The notes below the pieces were generated by a model. That model did no database searches. It was not told the origin of the DNA and was given only the letters and a program-made list of their open reading frames with translations. Both the position numbers and the translations under genes were made by a program. A stretch of DNA of 64,000 nt from Escherichia phage CMSTMSU. Positions 16,565 through 38,463 of this stretch are shown one piece after another; position 1 is the first letter of the stretch, and each line of letters opens with the position of its first letter. The stretch lies in sequence record MH494197.1. One strand, given 5' to 3'.

Positions 16565-16572
16565 ACCACGTT

Positions 16573-20122: not shown

Positions 20123-20270
20123 TATAAGTCCTCTAATTTAACAGGTACATGTTCATTGATGAACGTCTTAAGAGCCAGTACTAGATCTTCTAATTCTTCT
20201 GTACTGAATTTTAATATAGTTTTAAAGATTATCAATTCATTTCTTTCTATAATCTTTGGAATTTCATATG

Positions 20271-20684
20271 CTAACATAAGATTGCGAACAGTACCAGCGT
20301 TGTGTATGAGGTTCGCATTGAATAAAAGTACATCGTACTCGTCTTTTTAATTTTATAATTGTACTCTTCAATTACTTCATGTGTGTATGTATTCTTATAG
20401 GCAATTTTATTTTTATGAAATTTATAACCAACAGTAACACTATCATCATAAAATGTAGAACGATAATCTTGTTTTCTATCGCCGGACGAAATGATGTGTA
20501 ATGCTGTGTATTTGTCCTCAACATCTAACTCAATGTTTGCATAACTGTTAACGGTTTCATTCTTTAGGACGTTAATGTTATATTTCTCATTAACTTTAAT
20601 GTACTGGCGTGAACCATTATCATCAATGAACTTAAAACAATGCTTTACCAACAATGTGATTTCTTTAATTAATTCAGTACTCAT
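20271..20684 (-). CDS. hypothetical protein
   Basis: track ORF 137 aa; promoter-like TTTACA-17-TATAAT and AGGAG SD upstream. Confidence 0.45.
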   Translation of the reverse strand: MSTELIKEITLLVKHCFKFIDDNGSRQYIKVNEKYNINVLKNETVNSYANIELDVEDKYTALHIISSGDRKQDYRSTFYDDSVTVGYKFHKNKIAYKNTYTHEVIEEYNYKIKKTSTMYFYSMRTSYTTLVLFAILC

Positions 20685-20711
20685 ATCTTCTCCTGTACTC
20701 TGTTAAAAGCG

Positions 20712-20740
20712 ATTATAACACACCTGAATGCTCATGTAAA
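20712..20740 (-). promoter_or_regulatory. sigma70-like promoter
   Basis: TTTACA - 17 nt - TATAAT read on minus strand, about 28 nt upstream of the ATG at 20684. Confidence 0.4.
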
Positions 20741-20750
20741 GCACTAAACA

Positions 20751-20778
20751 CAAAAAGACCCATAAGGGTCTTTATTTT
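20751..20778 (-). terminator. rho-independent terminator (possibly bidirectional)
   Basis: stem AGACCC/GGGTCT, 4 nt loop, flanked by A-run and T-run. Confidence 0.55.
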
Positions 20779-21049
20779 GGTAAAACGCTGTCAATGTACG
20801 CTAGAGCCTCATCTCGGAGGTACGTTCCATCTATTGTTATGTAATAGTTCTTAGGATATCACTCCCAATCTTCTCGTAAATTTTCATACATGATATCACA
20901 TCTTCATCACAAATGGTACTCAATTGAAACTGTACTTCATCAGTTAAAGGTACGATATCATGTTTAGATGGGGTTGGTATTTTCATTCAAAACAATATCA
21001 AACAAATTAGGAGTATTCTTTGACGAAATGTAACGATGTTTACTACGAA

Positions 21050-21649
21050 TTACCATTCTCGACAGAGAAATACTGGAACTCCATCTTGGTCCACATCTTC
21101 GTATGTTAACGCAATTAACATTTCATAATAATCTTGGAATTTCATTGATGCATAATATGTTTTGTCCTCACCGTACATTCCAAATGATTTGAATTCAATG
21201 TCACCTACATTGTGTGTATCGCTATCACTATTCACGAATTTTAACAGACTGTTGATTAGTCTGATTAGAATATCATCTTTATTCATTATCAGATAACTCC
21301 CTGTGCATGTTGTATAAATCTCTAAAGTCCTGATAGAAATCTTTTCTTCAAGAATATCTTTTAAACTAGGAATCTCATCCATAATCTCATCGATATCAGT
21401 TTCAATAGTAAAACCTGATTTATAATTTTGTAAGAGATAACTAAAAGCAACAAGATAAAGAATTTCATTTGGTTTATGGATTAACATGTGTTGGAACATA
21501 ACTGATTCTAAATCAGATTCAGTACTAAGGTCAGCATAACATGTATCGTTGGTGTCAATTCGTACTTTACTTGAATTTGGATTCCATGTAAAGCAATGTG
21601 TTCCAACTGTTCCCAAACATCCTACTCTTGTACTATCATTTGTTCCCAA
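21050..21649 (-). CDS. hypothetical protein, degenerate family A motif
   Basis: 199 aa; ESVMFQHMLIH. Confidence 0.45.
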   Translation of the reverse strand: MGTNDSTRVGCLGTVGTHCFTWNPNSSKVRIDTNDTCYADLSTESDLESVMFQHMLIHKPNEILYLVAFSYLLQNYKSGFTIETDIDEIMDEIPSLKDILEEKISIRTLEIYTTCTGSYLIMNKDDILIRLINSLLKFVNSDSDTHNVGDIEFKSFGMYGEDKTYYASMKFQDYYEMLIALTYEDVDQDGVPVFLCREW

Positions 21650-22418
21650 AAGATATCAAAATACGTTTCATCTGTATAATCGTATTTTTGTACTTTACCT
21701 TTTTAAGGCATAAATCATTATCCTTTCGAAAAGTTTTAGATGATAGTGTATCAATGATGCACATTAATGTTTTTGCAAATGCAATACAATGACGTAATTC
21801 AAGTCTATGGAAATTATAATTAGTAAAATTCATAAAATTCATAATTGTACCTTCAATATTTTATCAGCAATTGATATAACCTTGTCATTGAATACATTAC
21901 CAATCTCAATTCTTATATACATCGCAGGTGGAATCTTTCCCTGAAGTGCATAATATGTTTGTATACCTAAGTACTCATTATTTGATAATGAAAATTTGAT
22001 TCTCTCCATATCTATGTCTGATTTTGGTAAATCTAGTAGTTCATGGTGGTAGTCAACATTTTCAGTGTATATTGATTTAAGTAATTTGAATGATCACTAC
22101 TAATGTAGATGCTATCATCACGAATAATTACTTTATAATCAGAAGGTTCAAACTTATCTTTAGGAGAAAAGAAGACATCATCTATCTTCTTCTCGTATAC
22201 CGAATAACAATTTACCATCGTACTTTACATCAAGCATATTACCTAGAATAGTAATTACACAATGTTCATCAATGTCATGACGTAATGAACGAGTCTTGTA
22301 TTTTGGGTTAATGAAAATTTTCATTAATTTTATACAAATGTCGGCAATGCATTTTACATTATCATTTTCTATGTACATCAAAACCCTCTTTAATTCTTTT
22401 ACATTTTAATGAATACTT

Positions 22419-22853
22419 TCATTGCAGAGATCTCAAAAGATAATGATTTAAAATTGCAGTACTTTTAAAGTACGACATAATGAATAGCATTTTGAGTTCT
22501 TTTTCTGTGTAAATTAAACTATTTTGAAAGTAACTTTCTTCTGATAAATCATCAAGAAAAGGATATACAACTCCATTTGGAGTCAAGAACATGACACGTT
22601 CACTCCAAGATCTAAATGAAATGTAATCAGTCTTACCACATTCATATAAGGAGTTTATCATTCCATCAATCATTAAGGAGAACTCAATACTGTATCCTAA
22701 TCTTTGACACTTGTATCTCTTATCTTCTTTCTTTGTAATTACGAAGTGACGACCCAATGAGTCTTTGTTATCGAAAATGAAATCAACTGTCTCTAAACAC
22801 TCCTTAGCGAACTTCATAGTTTCTCTGTACTTTCGGTTCATTAGTCTCTCCAA
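22419..22853 (-). CDS. family A paralog
   Basis: core SEESYFQNSLIY. Confidence 0.5.
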   Translation of the reverse strand: MERLMNRKYRETMKFAKECLETVDFIFDNKDSLGRHFVITKKEDKRYKCQRLGYSIEFSLMIDGMINSLYECGKTDYISFRSWSERVMFLTPNGVVYPFLDDLSEESYFQNSLIYTEKELKMLFIMSYFKSTAILNHYLLRSLQ

Positions 22854-23587
22854 ACTTTACGGAAGTGTTTCTCGTAGAACTCATCATCACTTAACATATA
22901 ATCAGGTGTTTCTACTTCTATGGGTTTGTAGAATGTTTCTGGAATGTGTGTAATTTTATTTGGTTGTACTTTATGTTCGCGTAAAACCTTCTGTATAGCT
23001 CCTAGGCGTTGTAAATCAATACAGGTGGGCAGAACTAAGCTGTACTGAAATAGCTCATCAGGGTCATTATAGATACATCCTTGGCTTGTTTGATTTTATT
23101 GTTGGCATCAATGAATATATCAAATCCAAGTACTGCATTATAGCTTACATATGTTGTTTTGTTTTTGTCAATAGCTGCACTTAAACTATATCCATATATT
23201 CCATGTTGGTCAACAATGCATCGTTGCATAATTTTAATCATTTCGAACATAATTTACCTCGTATGTGTTATAATTCCACGTTTTAACACTATCCATTTGT
23301 ATATCCTGAACTTCATGGAAATATTTAAGTACCTTCTGGTATTCCATTAGTTCGTACACATCTTCAGTATTGACAGTGCTCTCCTGAAACAATTCCTCTT
23401 CTGATAAAGTACTATAATCAGGATTTTTATTTCAGAATATATCTCATTCATATATGAATCATTTTGGTAAATCTGTAGATAAAACTGATTATATTCAGGG
23501 ATATAGGTTACGAAATGGTTCTTGATGAATTCATATCTTGAAGCAAAGCAATCATTGCCATCCGTCATGTACTGAATTGTTGTTGTA

Positions 23588-24070
23588 TTATGCATTCAAA
23601 TAATCCACGCATTTATGGTATACATCTAAATCTAAAAAGAATCGTTGTTTGTATTTGTAATGATGAAGTAGTGCACCATAAAGTAATATAGCATTAAGTA
23701 CTTTTGCATCATGAATACAAGACCCTTGGAAGTACATTTCTTCAGTCATGAAAACTAACTCATTGTAAGGGATAAGCACTGAATCTCTAAATGTATCAAT
23801 GTTAATCTTCAAATCGGACCCTTGGCAATATGAAATATATTCACCTCTGTAATGAAAGTCATTATCGTCAAAGTACTCAGCATATACTTGATTGTTCCTA
23901 TTATTTTTAAAGGCAAGTCTTCCTTTGGTTGAACTGAATTGGTCATATTGGAACATTCCACCAAAAGGCATTCCACCGAAAGGTTGGGGACTTCTGAACT
24001 CCTTTGCAATGCGATGAATGTTAGATGCAAATTCTAAAACACCATCGTAATCATATTCTGTTGTAATCAT
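23588..24070 (-). CDS. family A paralog
   Basis: core TEEMYFQGSCIHD. Confidence 0.5.
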   Translation of the reverse strand: MITTEYDYDGVLEFASNIHRIAKEFRSPQPFGGMPFGGMFQYDQFSSTKGRLAFKNNRNNQVYAEYFDDNDFHYRGEYISYCQGSDLKINIDTFRDSVLIPYNELVFMTEEMYFQGSCIHDAKVLNAILLYGALLHHYKYKQRFFLDLDVYHKCVDYLNA

Positions 24071-24601
24071 AGACCATTTTTCTCCATGTACTCAATGATT
24101 TCATCTACGAAGTTTAAATCCATATAGAATCTATCATTTGCGTCATTGAGTTCATCTTTAAGTACTGTAAAAATTGTAGAACTAAACACGATTCTCTCAT
24201 TGTACAAAGTACTGTACTGGAAGAATTCTTCTTCTGATCTAACATTAAATGTGTCATATTCATCATCAACATCAGATCAGGATGATAGTACTTAAAACTA
24301 TCAGATGTATGGAAACAATATGAGATAAAATCCTGATGGTGCATCGTCAAGTACACGAATACCACAGAAATTCTCATCTGTAGTATGCAACAAATTGCTA
24401 TTCATTGACAAATAATTTTTGTACGCATAAAGTGTGCATCTTGGGAGAATTATATTCTCTTTAACTGTTACAAGGAACTTATGAAGTTTAATGATATTTT
24501 GTGCGATTTTTTGTGCATTGCTAAATGATAGGTCTTTGACATTGTGATATAACCCTTTACAATTAATATAAAGAGATTATATCACAAAGATTTGGAGGGT
24601 G

Positions 24602-24856
24602 TCAAGAGTTCTCACGAAGTTCTACCATTTCTTTCCATACTAAATGGTAATCTTCTAAGTCCAGATAGAAGTCTTCATTTAAGTGCTCATATAAGTACTT
24701 GTACATGAATAGTACACCTAAATTATATTCAGTATTAAGTAATGATTGTTGGAAGTAGTTTTCTTCATTTAGTTCTATATCCATGAACTCAAATCTACCT
24801 AGACCTTTTAATGTACGTATCTCAACATGTGAAGTATCTGTTTTACTGAAGCACAT
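24602..24856 (-). CDS. family A paralog
   Basis: core EENYFQQSLLN. Confidence 0.5.
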   Translation of the reverse strand: MCFSKTDTSHVEIRTLKGLGRFEFMDIELNEENYFQQSLLNTEYNLGVLFMYKYLYEHLNEDFYLDLEDYHLVWKEMVELRENS

Positions 24857-25134
24857 GAATCCACCTCTAAATTCGGATCATATTCACATTCATACTGTCC
24901 ACTGTTATTATAGAAATCTCTATTACCATCCTTATCTTTTGGCTTAACAACTGATACGTGAAGGTCGTCATCTTTGTACATTGTACGTTCTGGCGTTTTC
25001 ACACATTTTAACTTATTTTCTTTAATGTACTTGATAATATCAATTATATCTTGTGCAGTACTGATTGCTGCCTCAAACGTATCCAACTTAAGATGATTGT
25101 ATAGAGTTCCCTCGTTCTTTATTTTATCTAACAT
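24808..25134 (-). CDS. hypothetical protein
   Basis: track ORF 108 aa. Confidence 0.4.
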   Translation of the reverse strand: MLDKIKNEGTLYNHLKLDTFEAAISTAQDIIDIIKYIKENKLKCVKTPERTMYKDDDLHVSVVKPKDKDGNRDFYNNSGQYECEYDPNLEVDSCASVKQILHMLRYVH

Positions 25135-25140
25135 AAAACC

Positions 25141-25479
25141 TCATAGTTCATACATCTTTGATTTGAATTGCATTGGTCCACCAACTTCACATGGATAATT
25201 TTCCATAATACGATTCAAAAGTATCTGGTACTGTTGTAGTACTTCAATTTCCAAATGTATACTACTATCCAGTACTAATGACTCCTGAAACAATTCACCT
25301 CTATCTAAACCTGAAAAATCATTTATAGTTAGCATTGGCTTATCATTTGTACGCAATGTAAATGATTCCTCATTTCGGATTAATGTACAGAATTCATTAT
25401 GTTTTCTGTTGTAATCCATTTTAACCAATAATAACTTGGTGTGAGTTGCGTACATTATTTTTACTAATTCAGTCTTCAT
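25141..25479 (-). CDS. family A paralog
   Basis: core GELFQESLVLD. Confidence 0.5.
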   Translation of the reverse strand: MKTELVKIMYATHTKLLLVKMDYNRKHNEFCTLIRNEESFTLRTNDKPMLTINDFSGLDRGELFQESLVLDSSIHLEIEVLQQYQILLNRIMENYPCEVGGPMQFKSKMYEL

Positions 25480-25750
25480 AACGGAATAAAATTCTCCTGT
25501 ACTGCTCCGGCTTAGTACTCAATCTCTTCACTGGATAATTGTCGAAGATCCTTTTCATTTCTTTCTGGATTAAACAAAGAAAATCAAAATCACAATAGTA
25601 TTTTTTATCCCATACTAAACTTTCTTGAAACAACTCATCTTCTTGCATTAGCGTAGTATCAATTGTATCTTCACGTGTATTTGAGTACGCTTCATGACAT
25701 TGAAAACCATCCTCGGATAATCCTAATGTATATGCCGCCATTTCAAACAT
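25469..25750 (-). CDS. family A paralog
   Basis: core EDELFQESLVWD. Confidence 0.5.
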   Translation of the reverse strand: MFEMAAYTLGLSEDGFQCHEAYSNTREDTIDTTLMQEDELFQESLVWDKKYYCDFDFLCLIQKEMKRIFDNYPVKRLSTKPEQYRRILFRYED

Positions 25751-25832
25751 ATCATCATTTGTCTTTAACGAAAGTAAACAACAAACGTATTTTTCGTTGT
25801 GTAGTAAGTAATGCTAATGGTATTCATTGGAT

Positions 25833-26435
25833 TTAAACCTCAGTATAAAGCTTACAATAGCTTTCATCGAAATCAAAAATACTTCTCAAGAACTGACAAA
25901 GGTCAGTAAAAATATTTACATTTGCTATATACACATTATCAAATTCTGTTCTTTCGAAGAATGTATGCATAGAATTTGTAATATATCTCATTGCAGATTC
26001 ACGCTGCATTGTTATATCATTTGTGAACATCGCATCTTCATCAGTACTGACTAATTCAATATCAAATGATTGCATATATGGGATACTCTTCCCTAGTGCA
26101 AAGCTATCACCGTATGATGCTTCAACTGCACCTTTAGAATACACCAATTGATATAAGTCCGAAATAGGGTTATAAAAAGTACGACATATTGATGAACATA
26201 ATTTATTATCTATCCAAAAGAAAACCCTATTTGTATTACCGTCAAATGCTATACGCAATCCATCACCATCTAACGATATATCACCATCGAGATTAAAAGA
26301 GAACTGAACTAATGCTTTTTCTAAGTCCATTCTTTTGTGATAAATGATTTCTTGCATATAGATAATATCATTTACTAATTTCTTAAAATACAAATGAACC
26401 TCAGTACTACAACATTTATTTGCATTTAATAACAT
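25833..26435 (-). CDS. hypothetical protein (200 aa)
   Basis: track ORF; no clear motif. Confidence 0.45.
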   Translation of the reverse strand: MLLNANKCCSTEVHLYFKKLVNDIIYMQEIIYHKRMDLEKALVQFSFNLDGDISLDGDGLRIAFDGNTNRVFFWIDNKLCSSICRTFYNPISDLYQLVYSKGAVEASYGDSFALGKSIPYMQSFDIELVSTDEDAMFTNDITMQRESAMRYITNSMHTFFERTEFDNVYIANVNIFTDLCQFLRSIFDFDESYCKLYTEV

Positions 26436-26484
26436 AGTAGATCCTTATACATTGCATGTATTCTTACAATGTCTCTGTAATAAC

Positions 26485-26727
26485 TCATATCTTCACGATT
26501 ATCATTAAAACAGTAACACTGAATACAGCAGTACTAATTGAACTATCAACAATGTACTCTTTTAATTTATTATAAAGATATATGCACTTAGTAGATGTAT
26601 CATCCCACATAAGACTATTTTGAAAGATGTTTTCTTCTGTGTTAGGATATAAGTACTGCTCAATCTTGTACCCCAATGAACTATCACAGTTTTTATATAC
26701 AGAAATAGATGGACATTCATATTGCAC
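26485..26727 (-). CDS. family A paralog
   Basis: core EENIFQNSLMWD. Confidence 0.45.
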   Translation of the reverse strand: MQYECPSISVYKNCDSSLGYKIEQYLYPNTEENIFQNSLMWDDTSTKCIYLYNKLKEYIVDSSISTAVFSVTVLMIIVKI

Positions 26728-26966
26728 ATAATACTAATAACATTATCATTGTATGTAGAAATTAAACTGGTACTGGATGCTACACTTTCATCGTAATTCA
26801 GTACTGAAATTCTTGCATTATCTGTGCAGTACAGATGTTTCATTCCACCTCTCATAGCTAGAGTAAGAAATTTATCAGTGAACCATATTCCTTTTGTTTT
26901 CAGTATAGTTTCATGCATAAGATAAGTTTCAATGAAGATTTTACACGCTCAAATGCCAAGTCAAGT

Positions 26967-27158
26967 TCATTGTACATAACGAATATCCTTCTGTAAGGAA
27001 TCAATATATTCTTTAACAACTTGTTCCTGATACTGTGTGCCCAAATACATCAGTACTTTTAACTCTTTGAATTCAGTACTATATGAGTCGGTTTGCATCA
27101 TTTTAGAAGAATATATATTGAATAGTTTAGCAATATCATCTTGGTCTATTATTTTCAT
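26967..27158 (-). CDS. family B paralog (outlier inside family A array)
   Basis: MKIIDQDDI N-terminus and YLGTQYQEQVVKEYI C-terminal core. Confidence 0.45.
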   Translation of the reverse strand: MKIIDQDDIAKLFNIYSSKMMQTDSYSTEFKELKVLMYLGTQYQEQVVKEYIDSLQKDIRYVQ

Positions 27159-27203
27159 TAACCCTCTTCTGAATAAGTTCCTGTAAGTGCTGAATATAAC
27201 CCT

Positions 27204-27653
27204 TCATTGCAACATCCTGTTTGTTAGAGCCAACGAAGAACAAGAGCTTAAAGTCATGGTAATCCATTTTGGTTTAGTAGTGAACCATATGTCCCACACT
27301 GCACTCACAGTTCTCATGTATTCAATTCGATTAAATGTTTTGAATACTTCATCGAAATCAACCTTTAATAAATTGATATTTAAATTACTGTTAAATGCCA
27401 TCTGCAATTCCATATAGAACTGAATAATAGCATAGTCAGGATCAGTACAAGATAGTTGAAAGCACTGTTCTTCAAATGAATTGTAATTGTACTTAGGAAT
27501 ATTAATAGTACGATATAACTCTGGATAACCCCATATCATAGTGTACACGTCAATTTCAGTACACTTTTTCTTAAAAGTCATCTGTCGAATAGTTTCAGAT
27601 CTGGATTCAAGGTATACAACATTCTTATGAACTGCTGAACCAATTGAAATCAA
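27204..27653 (-). CDS. family A paralog
   Basis: core FEEQCFQLSCTD. Confidence 0.45.
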   Translation of the reverse strand: MISIGSAVHKNVVYLESRSETIRQMTFKKKCTEIDVYTMIWGYPELYRTINIPKYNYNSFEEQCFQLSCTDPDYAIIQFYMELQMAFNSNLNINLLKVDFDEVFKTFNRIEYMRTVSAVWDIWFTTKPKWITMTLSSCSSLALTNRMLQ

Positions 27654-27914
27654 TGATGTATCAATGACGTGTTTTCCACGTATCTCACACTTCTGGAATG
27701 CACCATTCCCTGTAAAAGTTTATGGAAATCGTACTTCTCACTAATAACTGTACTAGGATCGATTAAACCAGTACTGCATTTTTCAGTACTGGTACGATAG
27801 TGCGAATCTTTTTGATAAATCTTGTAATGCATCATAATCATTAATGTTAATTTTTCTCAAAGGATGCCTCTTCTATAGTAACGAAATCAACTAACCTATC
27901 AAGTTTTTCAGTGT

Positions 27915-28298
27915 CTAGATAAAATATATCCAGTACTGACTTCTGATATAGTACACTAAATGTACATAGATTGTCAAGTGTTCCTTCATTATAAACAGTA
28001 CTTCGAAGTACCCTTCTTCTGTACTCAGAGATAAAATATCAGAAATTTTAAAAGATTCTTCATTCTCATGACGCTCTATCGTAACTTCATCATATTTTCT
28101 GTTCAATGAAATATAATCGTATGCTAATTCAATAGTACTACAGTTGTTGTTGCTAGTGTCAAATAAAGAATCAATTGTAATCTTCGTGCCATTAGAAACT
28201 TCTCTTCGTTCATCATCTACGTATTCAGGATTTTCTTTGAAGAACTTAACAACTTTTAGAATATCATTTGCTTTCTTGATTGCACTTTCGTAACTCAT
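27915..28298 (-). CDS. hypothetical protein
   Basis: track ORF 127 aa; degenerate STEEGYFEV. Confidence 0.4.
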   Translation of the reverse strand: MSYESAIKKANDILKVVKFFKENPEYVDDERREVSNGTKITIDSLFDTSNNNCSTIELAYDYISLNRKYDEVTIERHENEESFKISDILSLSTEEGYFEVLFIMKEHLTIYVHLVYYIRSQYWIYFI

Positions 28299-28382
28299 TT
28301 TTTCTGGACTCCATATATATCACCTGATTTAGTTCATATACATAATCTAAATCAATGAATATAGAATTATTAAAGTTCTCTT

Positions 28383-28565
28383 TCAGAAATGCATTAAAAC
28401 TACTAAAGCTCTTAATGCACTATTTGGGTATATAGTACTGTACTGGAAGTAAGCATCTTCTGAATTTAAGAATAGTACTTCTTCTTCGGTGAATTCAAAA
28501 TATTTTCCACTTTCATCGATTGAATAGAAAGTTCCAGAATCCCATACGAAGTACTTGAATTCCAA
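28383..28565 (-). CDS. family A paralog
   Basis: core SEDAYFQYSTIY. Confidence 0.4.
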   Translation of the reverse strand: MEFKYFVWDSGTFYSIDESGKYFEFTEEEVLFLNSEDAYFQYSTIYPNSALRALVVLMHF

Positions 28566-28734
28566 ATCATAATCATGGGACTCGTACTTATATTCATTAC
28601 CTAATCCTAGAATATCTGTACCAACACTTATAGTACTAATATATGCCCTTTATAGTCTAAGTACTTTACATTATTTTGAAAGAACTTTACTATATTAACT
28701 AATTCCTCAGCGTGCTTAAGATCACTTTCGTACA

Positions 28735-29109
28735 TTATATTTCAATCTCTATATATTTTTGGGTAATTAAGTAATCCCAGTAGTACTTCACATGTTTTTG
28801 TATCTCAAGTAAAGCATAAAAATTAATTCTCTTGTCCCATACAAGTGATTCCTGAAAAATAAATGATTCATGGTCATCTCTGTAATCACATTCAAGGAAG
28901 TCAGGAATATAATCACAATCGTGAAGATATTCAATCATTAAAGATTCATTACATCTTCTAACGGCAAGGTGCTGGAAATTATCATGATCGAAGAAATACA
29001 TTAAACTAATTGTACCGGAATGTACTGAATACTGTATAAGAATTTCATCGTTTGCCCTTATGTTCGGTACGTACATATTCATAATCCAAATAAAATCTTG
29101 TGCTATCAA
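28735..29109 (-). CDS. family A paralog
   Basis: core ESFIFQESLVWD. Confidence 0.45.
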   Translation of the reverse strand: MIAQDFIWIMNMYVPNIRANDEILIQYSVHSGTISLMYFFDHDNFQHLAVRRCNESLMIEYLHDCDYIPDFLECDYRDDHESFIFQESLVWDKRINFYALLEIQKHVKYYWDYLITQKYIEIEI

Positions 29110-29227
29110 TACTTTTAAAGTACCACATAATAACTAAAGTATCTAGTACTTCATCATCATACAAAGTACTATTCTGAAAGTAATACTCTTCACTATCCCA
29201 CGGACCTTTCAGTACTTCAAAGTTCAA
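29045..29227 (-). CDS. family A paralog
   Basis: core SEEYYFQNSTLYDD; near-identical to neighbour 29230..29745. Confidence 0.45.
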   Translation of the reverse strand: MNFEVLKGPWDSEEYYFQNSTLYDDEVLDTLVIMWYFKSIDSTRFYLDYEYVRTEHKGKR

Positions 29228-29229
29228 TT

Positions 29230-29745
29230 TTAACGGTCTACTGCGATTATAAAACGGATTTCACCTCCATATGCATAACTAATAAATTCTGCATCTGGAT
29301 TGTATTGTGAAAAATCTGCTGGACTTTTGGAATTCAAACCAAGAATAACTGTAGTTGTAGCAAAATCACTATCCTTGTAGTAGTTACCATTCTCGGCTTT
29401 GTATACTTCTTCGAACTTCCCAGCCTTAATATCTTCAATATATGCCTGTAGTTCTTTTGCTTTATCAAGAGCACTTCGTAATGACATTATCTTCCCTACA
29501 GTATTCTCTACGTATTCATAATCGAAATAGAAACTACTAGAGCCAATACTTTTAAAGTACCACATAATTACAATAACATCTAATTCTTCTTCATTGTACA
29601 CAGTACTGTTCTGGAAGTAATATTCTTCACTATCCCACGGACCTTCCAGTACTGAATACGGAATGATTGTGTCATCATCATCGTAATCAGGGCTGTAAAT
29701 TATAATATCTTCATCTCTACAATAACTAATGTACTGATTGTACAT
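29230..29745 (-). CDS. family A paralog
   Basis: core SEEYYFQNSTVYNE followed by VIMWYFKSI. Confidence 0.5.
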   Translation of the reverse strand: MYNQYISYCRDEDIIIYSPDYDDDDTIIPYSVLEGPWDSEEYYFQNSTVYNEEELDVIVIMWYFKSIGSSSFYFDYEYVENTVGKIMSLRSALDKAKELQAYIEDIKAGKFEEVYKAENGNYYKDSDFATTTVILGLNSKSPADFSQYNPDAEFISYAYGGEIRFIIAVDR

Positions 29746-29905
29746 ATGATATTCACAGTCATCAGTATCACCCGTATCAGTGTGTAGTACTAACGTTTCT
29801 GCACATATCTCTGACTCATCATAATCGTCGCGGTCTTTTACAAAAATTCAGTATCAGATGTTTTATACACACGGCACTGAACCTTCTTGTACCATAATCA
29901 TGTAA

Positions 29906-30103
29906 TCATGAATCTTCTTTGCTTCTTTCAATGCACTTTCTAATGACATTACTAATCCCTGTACTTAAATATTCACATGCTCCCCAGTCAAGGAAGAAGG
30001 GTTCAAAATTCAATTCCTTAAAGTACCACAAAACAACCAAGGAATCAAGCATTTCTTGGTTAAAAATAAGACTCTGTTGGAAGTAATACTCTTCAGTACC
30101 CAC
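29906..30103 (-). CDS. family A paralog, N-terminally disrupted
   Basis: core TEEYYFQQSLIFN; upstream DGPW in another frame indicates a 1-nt deletion relative to neighbours. Confidence 0.4.
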   Translation of the reverse strand: MGTEEYYFQQSLIFNQEMLDSLVVLWYFKELNFEPFFLDWGACEYLSTGISNVIRKCIERSKEDS

Positions 30104-30363
30104 GGCCCATCAAGTACCCGAAGTCAACAGGTGTATTTGATGTGTCAAAAGTAATCTTAGTACGGAATATATACAAAGAAACTAGTATATTGACTACATG
30201 AAGAGTACTGTATAGTATTGTCTTTATCATGGCCCATAAGTAAAATATCATCAGAGTATGTCTTTATACCTGATAGATAATACTCATTACCAAATGCACT
30301 TACTTTATCACCATAGAAACCACTTTTATGTTATCGTGGAAGTGATGTATTTTGTGTGCCAGT

Positions 30364-30738
30364 TTAAGTGCACTTGCTAAACTCATATATCCTCTTTAAT
30401 AACTCGTAGTAGATCCAAGTCCAGATAGAAGCTAGGACAATCGGTATTATTAAAGTACCACAGAATGACAAGCTTGTCAAGCACATATTCCTCGTAGATA
30501 GTATTCTGCTGGAAGTAGAACTCTTCACTTCCCAGTCATTATCCAGTACTGAATACGGAAGATGTTTCTCTGCTGCACCAGTTATAATGTCAGTATATTG
30601 TATTAAAATATCAGCATCACGACAGAAGTACATGTAATTATCTTCCAGATTAACATCACACCCAGTGAGTGTTGTTTCAGAAGAATCTAAGTTTTCTTCG
30701 TACATGTGAATGTACTCACTACTGTCATCGTATATCAT
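30364..30738 (-). CDS. family A paralog, frame-shifted
   Basis: motif SEEFYFQQNTIY...LVILWYF readable only in an alternative frame from about 30540. Confidence 0.4.
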   Translation of the reverse strand: MIYDDSSEYIHMYEENLDSSETTLTGCDVNLEDNYMYFCRDADILIQYTDIITGAAEKHLPYSVLDNDWEVKSSTSSRILSTRNMCLTSLSFCGTLIIPIVLASIWTWIYYELLKRIYEFSKCT

Positions 30739-31124
30739 TCGACAATAAGCTTTACCTTCCTTGAATAGATACCCATTGAGACGATTGAGTACTATTTCCT
30801 TTTACATAAATCAATTAACTTAGCAATTTCTAATGCTCTTGTAAAACTCATATCAACTCCTGTGTTGTGTCTTGATATAATCTCGGTACACCATGTGAAT
30901 ATTAGCTATATACAATTCACTAATATCATATGTACCGAAGTTCATGTCATTCCTAATGCTGTTGTTATGTCTAATATCAATTACGAATCGTCGAAGTATT
31001 GTATTCATGAATGATTCCATTTGTTCTTTTTATTCATAGCTTAAAACGATACCTATCTTTGAATCAGACTCTATACAGATTCTTCTATATTCTTTCATCT
31101 TCTGTTGGAGTTCAATTACTTCCT

Positions 31125-31448
31125 CTAGTGTACACAAGTACTTTTGTCAAATATTAATGACTCTTGAAATATTTCAGCCTCACCATGTACTGTTGTATAG
31201 TCTTTCATATTTTCTACAACTGTTCCTTTGGACTGATAATCAATGAAGCTAAAGTAAGCACCATTAAATTTAATGTACTGATCCATTTTGTGTTCATAAT
31301 CACCTTTGTTAAGATTGCAATACACTTCTAGCGAAGTACTAATCTTAGGTATAAACATAGAAAAATCATATTCCATATTACTCACCTGTATTGAAATAAT
31401 AATTACTTGTTGTTGGTGTAGATGTATCAAAGGTGTTTTCTTTAACAT
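31125..31448 (-). CDS. family A paralog
   Basis: core AEIFQESLIFD. Confidence 0.45.
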   Translation of the reverse strand: MLKKTPLIHLHQQQVIIISIQVSNMEYDFSMFIPKISTSLEVYCNLNKGDYEHKMDQYIKFNGAYFSFIDYQSKGTVVENMKDYTTVHGEAEIFQESLIFDKSTCVH

Positions 31449-31743
31449 ATCTCTTCATTTCATTTTGTATAAAAATCATATCTTCTATTGTACATGAGTA
31501 CTTATTCTTGTCAAACACCAAAGAAGCTTGAAATAGTTCAGCATTATCTAGTACTGTATAATCTGTAATACTTTCAGAGTTATAGTCGAAGTCATCATGT
31601 AATACATCAATGAAATTAAAACACAAATCGGAGTACTGAATATATAAACTCAACTCATGTTCCGAATCACCCTTGATAAGATTACAGCATAAATCCCATC
31701 CTGTTCTGGACCTGCAAACGTACATTGAATAATCATATGTCAT
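31378..31743 (-). CDS. family A paralog
   Basis: core AELFQASLVFD. Confidence 0.45.
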   Translation of the reverse strand: MTYDYSMYVCRSRTGWDLCCNLIKGDSEHELSLYIQYSDLCFNFIDVLHDDFDYNSESITDYTVLDNAELFQASLVFDKNKYSCTIEDMIFIQNEMKRYVKENTFDTSTPTTSNYYFNTGE

Positions 31744-32099
31744 TATGTAATTCCTATATTGAATTTGTATTCTTGATTAATACTTACATTGGATGTATTC
31801 AAAGCAGCATACTCTTTCATTTCATTTTGTATAGCAATTACTTCTTCTAGTGTACACAAGTACTTCTTATCAAATACTAATGCAGCTTGGAATAGTTCAG
31901 CGGCATCCATTACTGTATAATCCGGCATATCTTGATGTGGATACTGTAATGAATCGTAATCAATAAATGTAAATTTACCCTGAGTGTAATGAATATACTC
32001 ATTTGCACTGTGCATTAAATCACCTTTGTTTAAATTACAAAAGTACTGAAAACTGTTCTTAAAAGAATGTACTGATATTACAAAATCAAATTCCATCAC
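31743..32099 (-). CDS. family A paralog
   Basis: core AELFQAALVFD. Confidence 0.45.
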   Translation of the reverse strand: MMEFDFVISVHSFKNSFQYFCNLNKGDLMHSANEYIHYTQGKFTFIDYDSLQYPHQDMPDYTVMDAAELFQAALVFDKKYLCTLEEVIAIQNEMKEYAALNTSNVSINQEYKFNIGIT

Positions 32100-32869
32100 T
32101 CTTCCCTAGATTGAAATGATTACTAAAATTAGTTTCACCAGTTTTACACCATTTATCTATACATTCCCTGTGAATGCATTTAATTCTACGCTGGATTTCA
32201 ACAATCTCTTCTAATGTACAGATGTACTTTTGTCAAATACTAATGACTCCTGAAATAGTGCAGCATCATCCATTAAGGTATAGTCCAGCATATCGGTTGC
32301 TTTACAACTAAATCCAGTACCAAGATCCATTAAATAAAATTGTGAATTCCAGAACTTTATAACCTTGCCCTTGTGTAGTTTAAATCACCTTTGTACAAAT
32401 TACAACACGTAATCAACTCACCCGTGTACATCCATGTCCCTATACAAAATTCTTTATATTTTATTTCCATCTTAATCTCTACTGTAATTAATAAGGTAAA
32501 CTCCAATATAAGGAGCACGTTGGGGCGGGGTATTTTTGTTTCAGGAAACATGAACTGTACTCTGAAAACACATTTTAAAACTTTATATTAAACATATACC
32601 TTAACATGTTTTTCAGCGAAAATTTTTTGACCCCAGCGGCCTGTGAAAATGAAACGTCTCTATTTATTCAGCCTAGAAAGCTTGATTTCTTCAATCCTTT
32701 TCATCGCACAAAGCCTTCGACTCGTCCTCTCGTACATATTCAATACTCGCTGTAATGCATTATCTGTATTATCTGAACTGCAATCTGAACCAAATATGTA
32801 TCCTTCAAAATCGAATCCATCATGAATTCAAAACCTTTCACACTAAAGCAATATACCACTTCCGGCTCT

Positions 32870-33070
32870 TCAAACGTAATCATAATTCCAATCTGTCCCA
32901 TCTAACCTTCTAAGATATCTTGCGTAAATTATTTCGAAATATCTGTGCAACGAAATTACGGATTGCTCATAATCATCATTCCTGTACATTGTGCATGTAA
33001 GAAAATCATTTAAACCGTAATCTAAACTGCACTTGAACTTCTCCTTTGCAACATCTCTAAAATTATCCAT
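32870..33070 (-). CDS. hypothetical protein
   Basis: track ORF 66 aa; ATG overlaps stop of upstream small ORF (ATGGATAA). Confidence 0.4.
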   Translation of the reverse strand: MDNFRDVAKEKFKCSLDYGLNDFLTCTMYRNDDYEQSVISLHRYFEIIYARYLRRLDGTDWNYDYV

Positions 33071-33228
33071 AATATGTCCTCTGCACAGCGTAGGTGTACT
33101 GTGAACTCAGCACCGTTAATAGGTAATCTATATTGTAAGCACGATTTCCTCGTTGACTAGCACGACTAGAATAAAGAATATTATCCACATATGTATTGAA
33201 CTGTTCTTCAAATAACTCTTTCATCAGC

Positions 33229-33262
33229 ACCCTTTAACAACCTTTAACAACCTTTAACAACT
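33229..33262. repeat. tandem repeat, 3 copies of CCTTTAACAA
   Basis: read directly; overlaps the 3' end of ORF 33244..33600. Confidence 0.6.
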
Positions 33263-33600
33263 TTTGAAATGTAATCTTCTAATACACCAATGTTCTTTGT
33301 ATTCGTTCGAACTAAAAGATAACTTAAATTCTCGAACTCCTGAACATAATGCTTAACAGCGTACATGCATCGTAATTCAAAATCTGTATGAACCGTTTTG
33401 TACTGAAATAACATCTCTTCTGATGCATCTAAAAGCTCTGTAGCTTGTTCTGTACTGAACTTAAAGGGATTCTGTACTCCTGAACTAAAACACTTTTGTA
33501 CGTTCGTCTGGACACCCTGTGATAGATATAATCCTGTACTACCATCTTGTGTTGATATCGAATTGAAACCATTACTTGCAACCATTAAATCTGAACTCAA
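33244..33600 (-). CDS. family A paralog
   Basis: core SEEMLFQYKTVH. Confidence 0.45.
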   Translation of the reverse strand: MSSDLMVASNGFNSISTQDGSTGLYLSQGVQTNVQKCFSSGVQNPFKFSTEQATELLDASEEMLFQYKTVHTDFELRCMYAVKHYVQEFENLSYLLVRTNTKNIGVLEDYISKVVKGC

Positions 33601-33806
33601 TACAAATAATAATTTATCTTCCTTATGAATTAATAAATCTGACTTCAGGATTTTATTCCTGTACTGGTTATATCACCTATACTAAGATTGTCACTGAACT
33701 TCTCAGCGTTGTTCGCAATGCTCTGGACAAGATTTTTAATCTCTTAATGGCACTTCTGTCTTTTTCTAATGTATCTAATAAACTCATTGAACTCATTGTA
33801 CTTTCC

Positions 33807-34151
33807 TTACATATTTGTACCGAACAAAACGGAACTTTGAATACCATTAATCGACACTTCATGTACATATATATTTTGTCTGAATACCTGAAGCAATTGA
33901 ACTAAACTTTGTTGCATAATAATATGCATCGCTACATTATCAAAGGCCGTTTCGTATTGGAATCGTGCAGCTTCATCTTCTATTAAATTCGGAACTTGGA
34001 CTGGATTCTCAAAATTTGTCCTTGTACTGAACTGTACATCATTGTCCTGTACCTTAATACCATATGAATTATCATTGTTATCAACTACATCAAATTCAAT
34101 TAAACTACCATCTTTACTGACGTTCACTATATACACTGAAAATCTACTCAT
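33807..34151 (-). CDS. family A paralog
   Basis: core EAARFQYETAFD. Confidence 0.45.
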   Translation of the reverse strand: MSRFSVYIVNVSKDGSLIEFDVVDNNDNSYGIKVQDNDVQFSTRTNFENPVQVPNLIEDEAARFQYETAFDNVAMHIIMQQSLVQLLQVFRQNIYVHEVSINGIQSSVLFGTNM

Positions 34152-34194
34152 AATCCTATTTCCTTTAAATCTTCCAAAAATGTTTCATAATCAC

Positions 34195-34464
34195 TTAAGG
34201 AAAAAAGATATCCGTATCGATGTTCGCATCTAATACATTATACAAATTCTGCATCTGTAACACATCAGGAGCATCAATCAATGATTGCTGGAAATAGGCA
34301 GCTTCATCTTCTAAAATATCCCTGAATGTTCTCTCTCGTACTCTGTGGTGTACTGAATTGAATATTGATTTCTCATCCTTAAGCATTGGTAGGTATCGAA
34401 TGTACATGTGTTCTCTTAGCTCAGGACTGATGGAACCCTGAACTGTAACACGTATTCGAAGCAC
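34195..34464 (-). CDS. family A paralog
   Basis: core EAAYFQQSLID. Confidence 0.45.
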   Translation of the reverse strand: MLRIRVTVQGSISPELREHMYIRYLPMLKDEKSIFNSVHHRVRERTFRDILEDEAAYFQQSLIDAPDVLQMQNLYNVLDANIDTDIFFP

Positions 34465-34703
34465 ATAGCAACATCCTGAAGGTAATTGGCACTGTAATTA
34501 TTGCTGTAAACAATCTTATGACTTCTGAACTCATCATCATTTCTGAACCAATTGTCACCTACTTTGGTGTACTTATGACTAAGCAATCCACCCTCTAACG
34601 CTTTGATGATCTTCAAAATGTTGTGTGCAAATGCATATGATGTATTGTACTTGGCCTGATACATGTGTGCCTCATCTGCCTCATTTGGCGTTAAAATATT
34701 CAC
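34416..34703 (-). CDS. hypothetical protein, degenerate family A motif
   Basis: EAHMYQAKYN. Confidence 0.35.
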   Translation of the reverse strand: MNILTPNEADEAHMYQAKYNTSYAFAHNILKIIKALEGGLLSHKYTKVGDNWFRNDDEFRSHKIVYSNNYSANYLQDVAMCFEYVLQFRVPSVLS

Positions 34704-34876
34704 TGAAATGATTATAACACAAAAGCACCACTATGTTAAGCACTCTGTTGTCAAAATCATCTTGTGATGCAGGATGCAAGGACGCATTGATGTTAAAATT
34801 CACTATATCATTGTGGAATTGGTATGTGAACAAATCAAACTTCGTATGCCTTTGTTTGATATCATAGGCGGTCATA

Positions 34877-35080
34877 TTATATATTCAACCCTTTAACAAT
34901 GGAAATAAATTCTTTGTATACATTTTCAGGTAAAGCTTTACTACCATAAAGAATACTAAATTCAGGTAACATATCCGAAATCTCTTTCGCTAAATTTATT
35001 TCATCCCTGAACATTTGCACAGGCATGATATCCTGTACCAATGATAACTGAAAGAAAAATGATTCAATATCTTCATGCAC
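34877..35080 (-). CDS. family A paralog
   Basis: core ESFFFQLSLVQD. Confidence 0.45.
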   Translation of the reverse strand: MHEDIESFFFQLSLVQDIMPVQMFRDEINLAKEISDMLPEFSILYGSKALPENVYKEFISIVKGLNI

Positions 35081-35236
35081 CTCTGAATTTAAATAAATCT
35101 CTTCTGGAAACTGGGCTGTACTGTAATAATAAAATACATCAATTCTTTTTCATTATTTTGTACAAGAGGTAAATTTCTTTCGTCTCTCTTATTAATATTT
35201 GTTTTCCATGACTCAATGTTATTCGGAATCCAAAAC

Positions 35237-35482
35237 TCATAAGGTGTCTTCTCCTGAAATATTATCCAGCTTCAATCCATAATATTCACCTTCTCCGTAC
35301 TTTTGCTTCAAAACAATACCTGTACTACTAATGTTTACAATGTACGTATCAACAATCCCTTCTGTGCTAAAAGGAATATTTAACTCTGAACCTTCAGGGT
35401 ACTTAGCATTGAATGCATCTAATGCTTTACTTAGCACTGGGATTGCACTGGTACTGTACTTCATTAATTGGTCTATGATCAT
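35237..35482 (-). CDS. hypothetical protein
   Basis: track ORF 81 aa. Confidence 0.4.
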   Translation of the reverse strand: MIIDQLMKYSTSAIPVLSKALDAFNAKYPEGSELNIPFSTEGIVDTYIVNISSTGIVLKQKYGEGEYYGLKLDNISGEDTL

Positions 35483-35853
35483 TTTAATTCTGTAATCACT
35501 GCATTTACTGCACTTGATGCAAATAAACTGATATTTGAACGATACATATCGTACACTGTACTTTCTTTCTTGTGCACAATGAAATCATAAAGATCAACGA
35601 ATGCAGGAATAATAATCTTGAATGATTTATTTGGGTACGTCCCAAAATCAACTGTACTCAATTTTGCAACGAGCATAACAACAAAGATTTCTTCTGGACT
35701 ATGCAATGTACTGTACTGAAAATATTCCTCAGCACTCATGGCACTTATTGCATTTATATCTTGTGTTTGTAATGTAATATTAAGATATTCAAAAATAGAA
35801 TAAAACTCTGATTTTGTTTGTATTTTGTATTTGTCAATTGGGGTATCTCTCAT
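35479..35853 (-). CDS. family A paralog
   Basis: core SAEEYFQYSTLH. Confidence 0.45.
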   Translation of the reverse strand: MRDTPIDKYKIQTKSEFYSIFEYLNITLQTQDINAISAMSAEEYFQYSTLHSPEEIFVVMLVAKLSTVDFGTYPNKSFKIIIPAFVDLYDFIVHKKESTVYDMYRSNISLFASSAVNAVITELK

Positions 35854-36104
35854 GAACCATAAACGATCTTGTCCATAAAAGGAATGATTGAATTTGGGGA
35901 AGCCAGAAATACTTCTTCACTATCAATATCCTTTAACTCAATTTGCATACCGGATGAATTGGCAATAATTAATTCATTAAAAATATAATGAACCTTGTGT
36001 ACAATCTCTTGTACTGAATTGAAATCATCTGGTATTTTAAAATTTTCCATAGGTATCTCCTTAAAATGATTACACATTGTACCATGCATTTGTACTCGTG
36101 TCAA
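35850..36104 (-). CDS. hypothetical protein
   Basis: track ORF 84 aa; degenerate SEEVFLASPNS. Confidence 0.35.
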   Translation of the reverse strand: MTRVQMHGTMCNHFKEIPMENFKIPDDFNSVQEIVHKVHYIFNELIIANSSGMQIELKDIDSEEVFLASPNSIIPFMDKIVYGS

Positions 36105-36120
36105 ACAAAAAGCCCATATC

Positions 36121-36618
36121 TTACGATACAGGCATGTTTATTTGAATTTCATTGTACAAATCATCAATATATAGACATGAAAACGATAAACTTTCTTTAA
36201 CTATATTGTTGTGATAAAGCATTTTAAATGCAATATAGAAAAATAAATCAATATCATCATGTACTAAATTCTGCTGGAACCACCACTCTTCTGTTAAATC
36301 TTGTGCATTAAAATCATCAGGAACTACAATTGACGACATATCAGCATCTTCTTTGTACTCAAACCACATGTCGTCATTTGGATAACGTTCATGCTTCTCT
36401 GGGTAACAATTGCTGGGATTAAATGCTAAAATATAAAATGCCGTCGCAGAATGTTCTTTATTATAAAATGAATTATTCCACACCTGATACCTTTCACCAA
36501 CATCAAACTCTTTTGATACTGATGTTATTGCACATAATGTACGATATATTGTTTCTATTTTGTGAACAAATTTAAAGGCTGCATCTAAACTGAACTCTAA
36601 ATCAGACATGCGGTGCAT
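36121..36618 (-). CDS. family A paralog
   Basis: core TEEWWFQQNLVHD. Confidence 0.45.
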   Translation of the reverse strand: MHRMSDLEFSLDAAFKFVHKIETIYRTLCAITSVSKEFDVGERYQVWNNSFYNKEHSATAFYILAFNPSNCYPEKHERYPNDDMWFEYKEDADMSSIVVPDDFNAQDLTEEWWFQQNLVHDDIDLFFYIAFKMLYHNNIVKESLSFSCLYIDDLYNEIQINMPVS

Positions 36619-36938
36619 AAAATTACCTCAACTAAAATAAGAACGGTATTGAATTCGAGGCAACCTTTGATACCTTGATTGTACATGTACTTTGCTACTA
36701 CATATTTCTGTACTAAATTATAATTATTAAATTCCTCAAAATTGTAATTTAGAATGAAATTTGTACTCAAAAATAACTTATGCATCTCTAATGCACTCTG
36801 ATAATATTTGTACAACTCACTGATATCAATACTTTGTAAATCACTTTGTTCATATGTATGATAAGGAATGGCGTCAATATCAATATTATTAAACCATTCT
36901 CTTAACTTATTAATATCAAATGTATTATTCAGCTTCAT
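36597..36938 (-). CDS. hypothetical protein
   Basis: track ORF 113 aa. Confidence 0.4.
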   Translation of the reverse strand: MKLNNTFDINKLREWFNNIDIDAIPYHTYEQSDLQSIDISELYKYYQSALEMHKLFLSTNFILNYNFEEFNNYNLVQKYVVAKYMYNQGIKGCLEFNTVLILVEVILCTACLI

Positions 36939-37042
36939 AACTCAATACCTCCATTAAGCACTCATAAACACCATCAATCGCATAAGCACAAAACTGAAAT
37001 TAATTTTGTTATTCTTGTGTAATGGACTATCGTGTACTGTAC

Positions 37043-37500
37043 TCAACATAACACTATAAAACAAAGAACGTTCATGTGTAAATAATGATTCCTGAAAAAT
37101 GCTTCCTCTGATTTAATTTTATTATATTCAATCGATTGATCATTAGAATAAAATGAATCTTGATTTGAATTGTACCATGTGTAATCCAAATCATTCTTTG
37201 ATATAACTGGTGTTGGATTAAACTGTAAAAGACTAATAACACTACGGGCATTTGGGGTATCAGGTGTATTGAATCGTTTATCAAAATGACTCGTGCACGC
37301 AATATGTGAATCAAAATCAGATGGTTTAAACCCCATGAATGCGTTAATGATTCTTGTATATGGTTTTTATTATGTGCTGCTTTCTGTACATTATATAAGG
37401 CTGCAACAATACAAGCTAACTTTTGTCCCATAAGGATTGCATTAGCGTAGGTGTACTGAATTTCATTGTACTCATTGCTTTCATTGTACTTCGAGATCAT
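37043..37500 (-). CDS. hypothetical protein, frame-shifted; degenerate family A motif
   Basis: two overlapping minus-strand ORFs 37043..37336 and 37072..37500; SEEAFF... Confidence 0.3.
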
Positions 37501-37690
37501 GGAACAGCCTCACTTTGCCTAACTCGTCATTGGATATTAATTCGTTAACAGCTTTTTGTATATTCTTTAATAATAGCACATCAAATCCTTTTGTGTCAAG
37601 CACACATTGCATTTGGAAGAATTCTTCTTCTGATAATGTATTAAAATCCACAAAATTGTCTAATATTACGTCATTATCCAAATGTGCCAT
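37481..37690 (-). CDS. family A paralog
   Basis: core SEEEFFQMQCVLD; near-identical to 37818..38129. Confidence 0.45.
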   Translation of the reverse strand: MAHLDNDVILDNFVDFNTLSEEEFFQMQCVLDTKGFDVLLLKNIQKAVNELISNDELGKVRLFHDLEVQ

Positions 37691-37817
37691 GTGCCATGTA
37701 TTTCTTTCGAGCGTTTAATAAAATTCCATCCATCTGGATAATCGGGTTCTAATTCTACATATATCCCCGATACTGTATAAAGCATTTTATATATCATAAC
37801 TATTGTACTCATTGTTT

Positions 37818-38129
37818 TCACTGTACGTCGATGTCATAATACGCTCCTACCTCATAATCTTTCTTGCTTTGGAATTCATTAACGACTTTCTGTATATTTC
37901 TTAATGTTACCATGTCATGTCCGTACATGTCAACCACCAATTGCATTTGGAAAAATTCTTCTTCAGATAATGTATTAAAATCTATAAAATAATCCGTAAC
38001 AACCTGTGCGTCTAAATTTGCCATGTACCATTGATTGGTATCGACCTCTTTAACCAAATTCCATGCATCTGGATCGGATTCTAATTCTACATATATTAAT
38101 GTTAATGTATAAAGCATTTTATACTTCAT
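37818..38129 (-). CDS. family A paralog
   Basis: core SEEEFFQMQLVVD. Confidence 0.45.
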   Translation of the reverse strand: MKYKMLYTLTLIYVELESDPDAWNLVKEVDTNQWYMANLDAQVVTDYFIDFNTLSEEEFFQMQLVVDMYGHDMVTLRNIQKVVNEFQSKKDYEVGAYYDIDVQ

Positions 38130-38463
38130 AACTATATCCTTGCATTAATAAATCATAAACGTTTGAAAGGTGCGGAATTTTGATATAAAATTTAAAACCC
38201 TTAATTAAAGGATTCGCGTACAATGAACTGAATAACTTTAGATAATGTATTTGACGAGGACTGTATAATAACGATTTCTGAAATAATTCAGCACTACAAT
38301 CTGAACTAATATCAATTAAATCAATTCGTGCTTCTACTTCATCATCTTGTTTCAAAACATAAAAGAAATAATCGTTTGTGTTGACCCACAAATACCCTTC
38401 ACTATTTTCGTATATAACAGGAGATGCTTGTTCTGGATTGCCTTGGCAAATGCTGCAAAACAA
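38119..38463 (-). CDS. family A paralog
   Basis: core SAELFQKSLLYS; C-terminus LLMQGYSYEV shared with 38700..39014. Confidence 0.45.
   Translation of the reverse strand: MFCSICQGNPEQASPVIYENSEGYLWVNTNDYFFYVLKQDDEVEARIDLIDISSDCSAELFQKSLLYSPRQIHYLKLFSSLYANPLIKGFKFYIKIPHLSNVYDLLMQGYSYEV

Follow-up and report, generated by a model that had tools for sequence, protein, structure and literature searches.

The question raised by this locus is whether a run of small, similar open reading frames (ORFs) in a jumbo coliphage records recent gene duplication. In a 64,000-nucleotide (nt) stretch of Escherichia phage CMSTMSU (MH494197.1; hereafter the window), three ORFs at 29045..29227, 29230..29745 and 29906..30103 had been taken for adjacent genes, the first two nearly identical and the third slightly more diverged, and this pattern had been put down to recent tandem duplication with unequal recombination ongoing within the arrays. 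Our analysis indicates that the locus is very probably a piece of an old and very large tandem array of paralogous, non-structural Asteriusvirus genes, with the ORFs being fragments generated by sequence errors.

The window derives from a jumbo coliphage of the genus Asteriusvirus (121Q/PBECO4-type). A 4-kb query around the locus retrieved 33 phage records, all of them Escherichia or Salmonella jumbo phages of the 121Q/PBECO4 group, with WPEC3 as the closest match (97.2% nt identity). The window is collinear with fEgEco12 ~5.7–69.7 kb (94.7–98.1% identity, with 98.1% over 40 kb), and its gene models are likewise collinear with those of 121Q, to which it shows 83% nt identity. Nearly all the genes in the window lie on the minus strand.

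Gene models and base-level errors at the locus

Gene models that agree in four annotated relatives were mapped onto the window. They place four tandem paralogues of 146–163 amino acids (aa), the homologues of g116 to g119, at 29045–30851 on the minus strand (Table 1). Of the three ORFs, 29045..29227 covers the last third of the g119 homologue, at its C-terminal end. In 29230..29745, a frameshift joins two thirds of the g118 homologue, from its C-terminal side, to the N-terminal end of g119, and 29906..30103 corresponds to the C-terminal end of the g117 homologue. The boundaries drawn for three neighbouring genes are thus wrong, each being a piece or a fusion of the g117–g119 homologues.

To count small insertions and deletions (indels), we aligned the window to WPEC3, fEgEco12 and ph0011. 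Over 16 kb, the window shows 55 private deletions of 1–2 nt and no private insertion, while WPEC3 and fEgEco12 have 0–3 private small indels each in the same alignment. Six of the deletions fall within 29045–30103 (at ~29250, 29493, 29841, 29872, 29956 and 30098). Across the whole 64 kb, there are 348 small (1–2 nt) deletions against five insertions, or about one deletion per 184 bp, and 208 of the 348 lie in homopolymers of at least four bases. Runs of T6 drop from 65 to 13 in the window, and those of T7 from 12 to none. Further, the 70 CCWGG sites of the matching fEgEco12 stretch have no counterpart in the window: all 62 aligned sites are corrupted (e.g., CCTGG to CC-GG or CCAGG to CCGTG), whereas GATC counts are unchanged. 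As a result, 129 of the 173 genes mapped onto the window carry frameshifts.

We take this deletion pattern to be that of unpolished nanopore-type base-calling of Dcm-methylated DNA. Alignment to the relatives shows the fragmented and fused ORFs to be attributable to systematic 1–2 nt deletions in the window sequence, not to biology. The corrupted CCWGG sites beside the untouched GATC sites further imply that the phage DNA would be C5-methylated at CCWGG. A phage-encoded C-5 cytosine methyltransferase has been reported for phAPEC6 (PMC7247149).

The frameshifts could instead be genuine, reflecting either an array decaying to pseudogenes in the CMSTMSU isolate or programmed frameshifting, and the window sequence as given does hold them. 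We regard this as extremely improbable: the same type of deletion affects genes throughout the 64 kb, deletions are 70 times commoner than insertions, concentrated in homopolymers and accompanied by the corruption of every CCWGG site, while all the ORFs are intact in four independent genomes and their orthologues are under purifying selection. With three quarters of its genes carrying what we read as sequencing frameshifts, the window cannot be read ORF by ORF, and other readings of it that depend on ORF boundaries need the same check.

Two tandem arrays and the age of their copies

An all-against-all BLAST comparison of 177 fEgEco12 proteins yielded two families of 30 members each, and an iterative search with hidden Markov models (HMMs) extended the second of these, superfamily B, to 42 members. 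The first, family A, consists of proteins of 70–85 aa with an LGTNYQE motif that match phrog_4148 (~1e-20), and the two families are unrelated. In the window, well over 30 homologous genes stand head to tail on one strand: at least 41 from superfamily B (a lower bound) and 29 from family A. Together with the Asteriusvirus genome and its synteny with the array of 121Q, this identifies the locus as part of the 121Q-type array.

The members of superfamily B combine a variable N-terminal part with a conserved C-terminal helical part that features an invariant Phe-Gln. The defining motif is EE-x-[YF]-F-Q-x-S, with F113 and Q114 invariant in the 22 long-form members. The proteins g116–g119 match phrog_9317 (E = 4e-50 to 1.4e-62); over the superfamily, the long forms match PHROGs 9317, 12674 and 34017 and the short forms 15629, 13866 and 33987, all of which are annotated as being of unknown function. 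The motif also resembles the tobacco etch virus (TEV) protease site (E-x-x-Y-x-Q-G/S), as in EEGYFQG of g122 (27857–28298) and EEMYFQG of, e.g., g132 (23588–24070); we treated this likeness as a coincidence, and the motif lies in a short helix of the structural model.

Neighbouring copies are more alike than distant ones. In fEgEco12, adjacent superfamily B proteins share on average 27.2% aa identity vs. 19.0% for non-adjacent ones, and the corresponding values for family A are 31.6% and 26.8%; in neither case did any of 10,000 permutations reach the observed value. On the window DNA, 10 of the 12 best superfamily B pairs are one to two genes apart and the remaining two are three apart. An origin by tandem duplication is therefore supported, and the comparison of neighbours with distant copies that had been suggested as a check comes out in its favour. 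The three pairs singled out earlier are indeed the three best on the window DNA. Two of them, noted at 37481..37690/37818..38129 and 44163..44420/44457..44645, are real and correspond to g099/g098 and g075/g074.

The similarity among the ORFs cited at the focal locus is far beyond chance, yet it falls short of near-identity. The ORFs 29045..29227 and 29230..29745 do contain the shared peptide, but only 37 of 54 residues are identical (E = 5e-27), rather than almost every one, and the underlying DNA (29072–29216 vs. 29509–29653) is 82% identical over 145 nt. The supposedly slightly diverged third copy is much more so, with 23 of 63 residues identical between 29906..30103 and 29230..29745 (E = 2e-15). 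The direct repeat comprises four copies in all, spaced 437, 466 and 432 nt apart, with those beyond the best pair being 62–78% identical. Over their full length, g118 and g119 share just 41% aa and 55% nt identity. Their C-terminal 52 codons are 71% identical in aa, 78% in nt and 73% at third positions, and their middle regions are in practice unalignable (39% nt and 25% third-position identity).

Comparison across genomes bears on the age of these copies. One-to-one orthologues of g116, g117, g118 and g119 are present in WPEC3, ph0011, fEgEco12 and 121Q, and the g118 orthologue was found in 35 of 35 Asteriusvirus records, with 3–5 matching places per record (4–5 in the 33 closest). Orthologues share 77–95% nt identity vs. 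48–55% for paralogues. Even the C-terminal block clusters by orthologue (81–97%) and not by genome (67–78% between g118 and g119). As the genes have one-to-one orthologues and cluster by orthologue, the g118/g119 relationship arose before the fEgEco12 and 121Q lineages separated.

These results can be set against the proposal that g118/g119 and the remaining pairs cited are of recent origin, produced by unequal recombination in the CMSTMSU phage or its immediate ancestors. The cited pairs do adjoin and are the most similar of the arrays, neighbours exceed distant copies in identity, g085/g086 is present in one or two copies among close isolates, and the 121Q and A4 loci each have a single gene in place of g098/g099. 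However, near-identity over the whole unit, as would mark a recent segmental duplication, is lacking in g118/g119; the best pairs reach 77–82% nt identity only across parts of the gene, no pair of either array in the window exceeds 82%, and even the polymorphic g085/g086 pair is just 82.6% identical. Nor is a duplicate missing from close relatives in the case of g116–g119, this being seen only for units such as g085/g086; both g118 and g119 have orthologues in the aligned genomes that are much closer to them than they are to each other. Neither "near-identical" nor "recent" thus describes these copies, and we consider a recent duplication very unlikely.

The uneven similarity of g118 and g119 points to another alternative, namely that a gene conversion tract homogenized the C-terminal 50 codons of what are otherwise old and dissimilar paralogues. 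The sharp contrast between the C-terminal block and the middle region is as expected of such a tract, and the third-position identity of the block is about that of fEgEco12/121Q orthologues (71–77%). On the other hand, the fEgEco12 g119 block is about equally close to the g118 of 121Q (76.3%) and to its own g118 (78.2%), and the orthologues still cluster together. Given these cross-genome identities and the clustering, any conversion predates the fEgEco12/121Q split, and a conversion specific to the fEgEco12 lineage, which we also considered, is contradicted by the same identities, which show none after that split. Moreover, the block is a conserved module across the superfamily, so that constraint alone explains part of the pattern. 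With just 52 codons available, the test is low in power, and partial conversion appears to us a rather doubtful, though not a far-fetched, explanation for the block.

Table 1. Coordinates of array members, repeats and regulatory elements in the window
Feature	Coordinates	Strand	Remarks
Superfamily B, full span	13516..42238	-	41 members with 18.7 kb of coding DNA in total; other genes interspersed
g122, g121 (long form) and g120 (short form) homologues	27857..29048	-	Further array members with the FQ motif
g119 homologue	29045..29487	-	147 aa in intact relatives; long-form superfamily B; 1-nt deletion at ~29250
g119 conserved C-terminal block (EEYYFQNS...WYFKS)	29072..29216	-	One arm of the 145-nt direct repeat
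g118 homologue	29462..29949	-	163 aa; deletions at ~29493, 29841 and 29872
g118 conserved C-terminal block	29509..29653	-	Second arm of the 145-nt direct repeat
g117 homologue	29952..30386	-	146 aa; 5 frameshifting deletions in the window
g116 homologue	30383..30851	-	156 aa; fourth subfamily member, missing from the original prediction; repeat copy at 30420-30529
g114 to g111 homologues, short-form subfamily	31034..32470	-	Period ~360 nt; 36-46% mutual aa identity
g099/g098 pair	37472..38129	-	58% aa identity; 77% nt identity over 307 nt; one such gene each at the 121Q and A4 loci
Family A array (phrog_4148)	39965..48161	-	29 members mapped; starts just inside the predicted terminal-repeat boundary
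Single g086-like gene	41888..42238	-	Occupies the slot of the g085+g086 pair; unit-sized difference among close relatives
g075/g074 pair	44163..44633	-	62% aa identity; 81% nt identity over 216 nt
Intergenic regulatory repeat, copy 1	60543..60614	-	TTGCAA-N17-TATAAT promoter-like site, then hairpin GGGAGAAATGATTCTCCC
Intergenic regulatory repeat, copy 2	60765..60836	-	92% identical to copy 1; same hairpin

Copy-number differences and the growth of the arrays

Comparison among related isolates shows that gene content differs by whole units, both between species and between close isolates. First, profile-based counts for fEgEco12, 121Q and A4 are 31, 26 and 24 for family A and 43, 40 and 40 for superfamily B, with A4 being devoid of equivalents of g119, g120 and g121. 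Second, the tandem pair g085/g086 (82.6% nt identity) is found in fEgEco12, EC.P1, WPEC3, vB_Ec-M-J and Turkey3, and a single gene occupies the same slot in the window, WPEC5, Ecwhy_1, ph0011, 121Q and A4. Third, 121Q gene 370 and A4_354 are extra (fifth) g118-like genes that lie upstream of g116 and share 59–63% aa identity with g118. In the clade of the window, the slot of 121Q gene 370 (L007 18595–19089) holds g114 and g115, and the exchange of a g118-like gene for g114 and g115 has the appearance of a cassette swapped at the borders of genes. The window interval at 30853–31376, which is similar in length to that slot, accommodates g114, a short-form copy, and the unrelated 61-aa g115.

Such unit-sized differences are of the kind made by unequal recombination. 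We propose that the arrays would have grown as neighbouring copies repeatedly underwent homologous recombination out of register (unequal crossing-over), that the copies would have diverged deeply after duplication, and that the same process would still be gaining and losing units. Under this proposal, g118 and g119 would resemble each other as the closest sister copies in a constrained C-terminal module.

We also looked for the product of an individual crossover. The single g086-like gene was one candidate, its 5' ~40 nt being suggestive but not conclusive. Another was A4_357 as an unequal-crossover hybrid with a g118-like 5' and a g119-like 3' portion: the tails of the proteins are suggestive, but the informative nt sites are mixed and offer no breakpoint, and we set the hybrid aside as unproven.

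Several points weigh against the history favoured here, that of an old array fragmented by sequence errors. No recombination junction was demonstrated, given the mixed informative sites of A4_357 and the weak 5' signal at g085/g086, where only the first ~40 nt of the window gene at 41888..42238 are g085-like. Third-position identity, at 73% in the g118/g119 block vs. 25–50% elsewhere, could reflect old gene conversion in place of sister-copy history. Finally, the attribution of the frameshifts to sequencing error is based on comparison with relatives. The suggestion that unequal recombination is ongoing accordingly stands with respect to copy number, which differs between relatives at g085/g086, in the g118-like gene and in the family totals, and falls short at the level of a junction.

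The tandem array of coliphage 121Q was published in 2017 (Hua et al., mBio, PMC5646251), where it receives one sentence without anatomy. Thus, the array and its interpretation are already in the literature, and the anatomy of the families is added detail; the array similarity as first claimed matters little, the arrays having been published already and "recent" being wrong. The window belongs to the same genus as 121Q and, by synteny, presents the same region. In contrast to "very similar" genes, the copies here share ~20–30% aa identity on average, and they resolve into two unrelated families (with 29–31 and 41–43 copies) whose number varies between species and isolates. The genome papers on fEgEco12 and the Sharanji Asteriusvirus make no mention of paralogues or duplications.

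Comparable expansions are found in other large viruses. About 10% of the proteins of Klebsiella phage RaK2 are mutual paralogues (PMC3622015), and members of the superfamily also occur in RaK2, K64-1, Muenster and KP13-7; however, the RaK2 families were neither delimited nor characterized in that study, and their identity to the Asteriusvirus copies is 14–21%. Bacillus phage G displays a lineage-specific expansion of ~35 zinc-ribbon genes (PMC7824862; PMC5646251). It is likewise a jumbo phage with tens of copies of one small gene, but the protein family is unrelated, with a DNA-binding or transcription-factor role having been proposed for it, whereas the array proteins have no domain or fold match. 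In poxvirus gene accordions, as in the multigene families that large DNA viruses carry, host-interaction genes located towards the genome ends are amplified in tandem through unequal recombination and then diverge. The poxvirus accordions feature near-identical copies whose number varies within a population, unlike the old and diverged copies of Asteriusvirus, for which differences in number were seen between isolates.

The array proteins and the adjoining regulatory region

Neither superfamily B nor family A proteins have a match in Pfam, and searches with PADLOC and against PDB sequences recovered no match for the array proteins. A confident model of g118 built from the 22-member alignment (predicted local distance difference test score, pLDDT, 88.1; predicted template modelling score, pTM, 0.83) combines a helix at the N-terminus with a sheet of seven strands and, at the C-terminus, a helical part in which the FQ motif lies. 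Its fold matched nothing in the PDB, and Foldseek searches against viral models recovered only uncharacterized proteins, from 121Q, RaK2, GAP32, Serratia phage BF and Yersinia phage fHe-Yen9. Among 1.84 billion representative proteins, a profile search gave only 138 matches; those in the subset that we looked up belong to Asteriusvirus, to RaK2-like phages of Klebsiella or to metagenome contigs. The family A model is a confident three-helix bundle, for which the structural matches are generic only.

The ratio of nonsynonymous to synonymous substitution rates (dN/dS) in orthologue comparisons is 0.24 for superfamily B and 0.34 for family A, with 0.19 for neighbouring genes, showing that the array genes are real and under purifying selection. 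Mass spectrometry of phAPEC6 detected 62 virion proteins, none of them the product of one of the array genes gp430–447 (PMC7247149).

Immediately upstream of the arrays, and in the same orientation, is a zone of consensus sigma-70 promoter-like sites, with 31 on the coding strand vs. three on the other. At 49500–64000 on the minus strand, these sites are near-perfect: 17 score 11–12 out of 12, all on the coding strand, and many read TTGACA-N16-TATAAT, each upstream of a small gene. This zone, which matches the long direct terminal repeat of fEgEco12, looks like an early region transcribed by the host RNA polymerase. The G+C content rises from ~0.31–0.35 to 0.39–0.41 at ~48 kb (48000–48700), which is where the 21-kb terminal repeat is predicted to have its inner boundary (fEgEco12 position 20,993), and family A starts within ~100 nt of that boundary. 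Further into the early region, ~450 nt at 59480–59932 are unaligned to fEgEco12 in long BLAST pieces, and the alignments on either side share ~95 nt of fEgEco12 sequence, which may indicate a local insertion or duplication.

The same region harbours the two elements with identical hairpins at 60548 and 60771 that the original prediction had counted as duplicated cassettes. The hairpin is indeed shared, but the repeated unit is a 72-nt intergenic element and not a duplicated gene, with its two copies preceding two unrelated small genes. The hairpin, GGGAGAA-N4-TTCTCCC, occurs four times (56288–56305, 58984–59001, 60549–60566 and 60771–60788; none is expected by chance), each time with a few bases separating it from an upstream promoter-like −10 element. 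At 60530–60566, an alternative pairing could form between its 3' arm (TTCTCCC) and the Shine-Dalgarno sequence AGGAGAA further downstream. This arrangement suggests a possible element of the 5' untranslated region (UTR) that controls stability or translation.

Because the array proteins are absent from the virion, under selection and encoded downstream of the sigma-70 promoter-like zone, we infer an intracellular, host-directed role: they probably act in the infected cell, early or in the middle of infection, as diversified host-interaction factors. A more specific, and for now tentative, proposal is that superfamily B represents an uncharacterized fold limited to RaK2-like jumbo phages, with a beta-sheet that varies between the N-terminal helix and the conserved Phe-Gln helical module, which with over 40 copies (~5% of the genome) would serve as a diversified intracellular battery for host takeover or anti-defence. 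New units would then arise from out-of-register recombination, possibly between diverged co-infecting relatives, and on this proposal such recombination is the reason why the polymorphic neighbour pairs are only ~80% identical. The arrays constitute a large block of conserved, selected, non-virion genes, and if their products are indeed host-interaction or anti-defence factors, they would be useful for investigating the ways in which giant phages diversify genes of this type.

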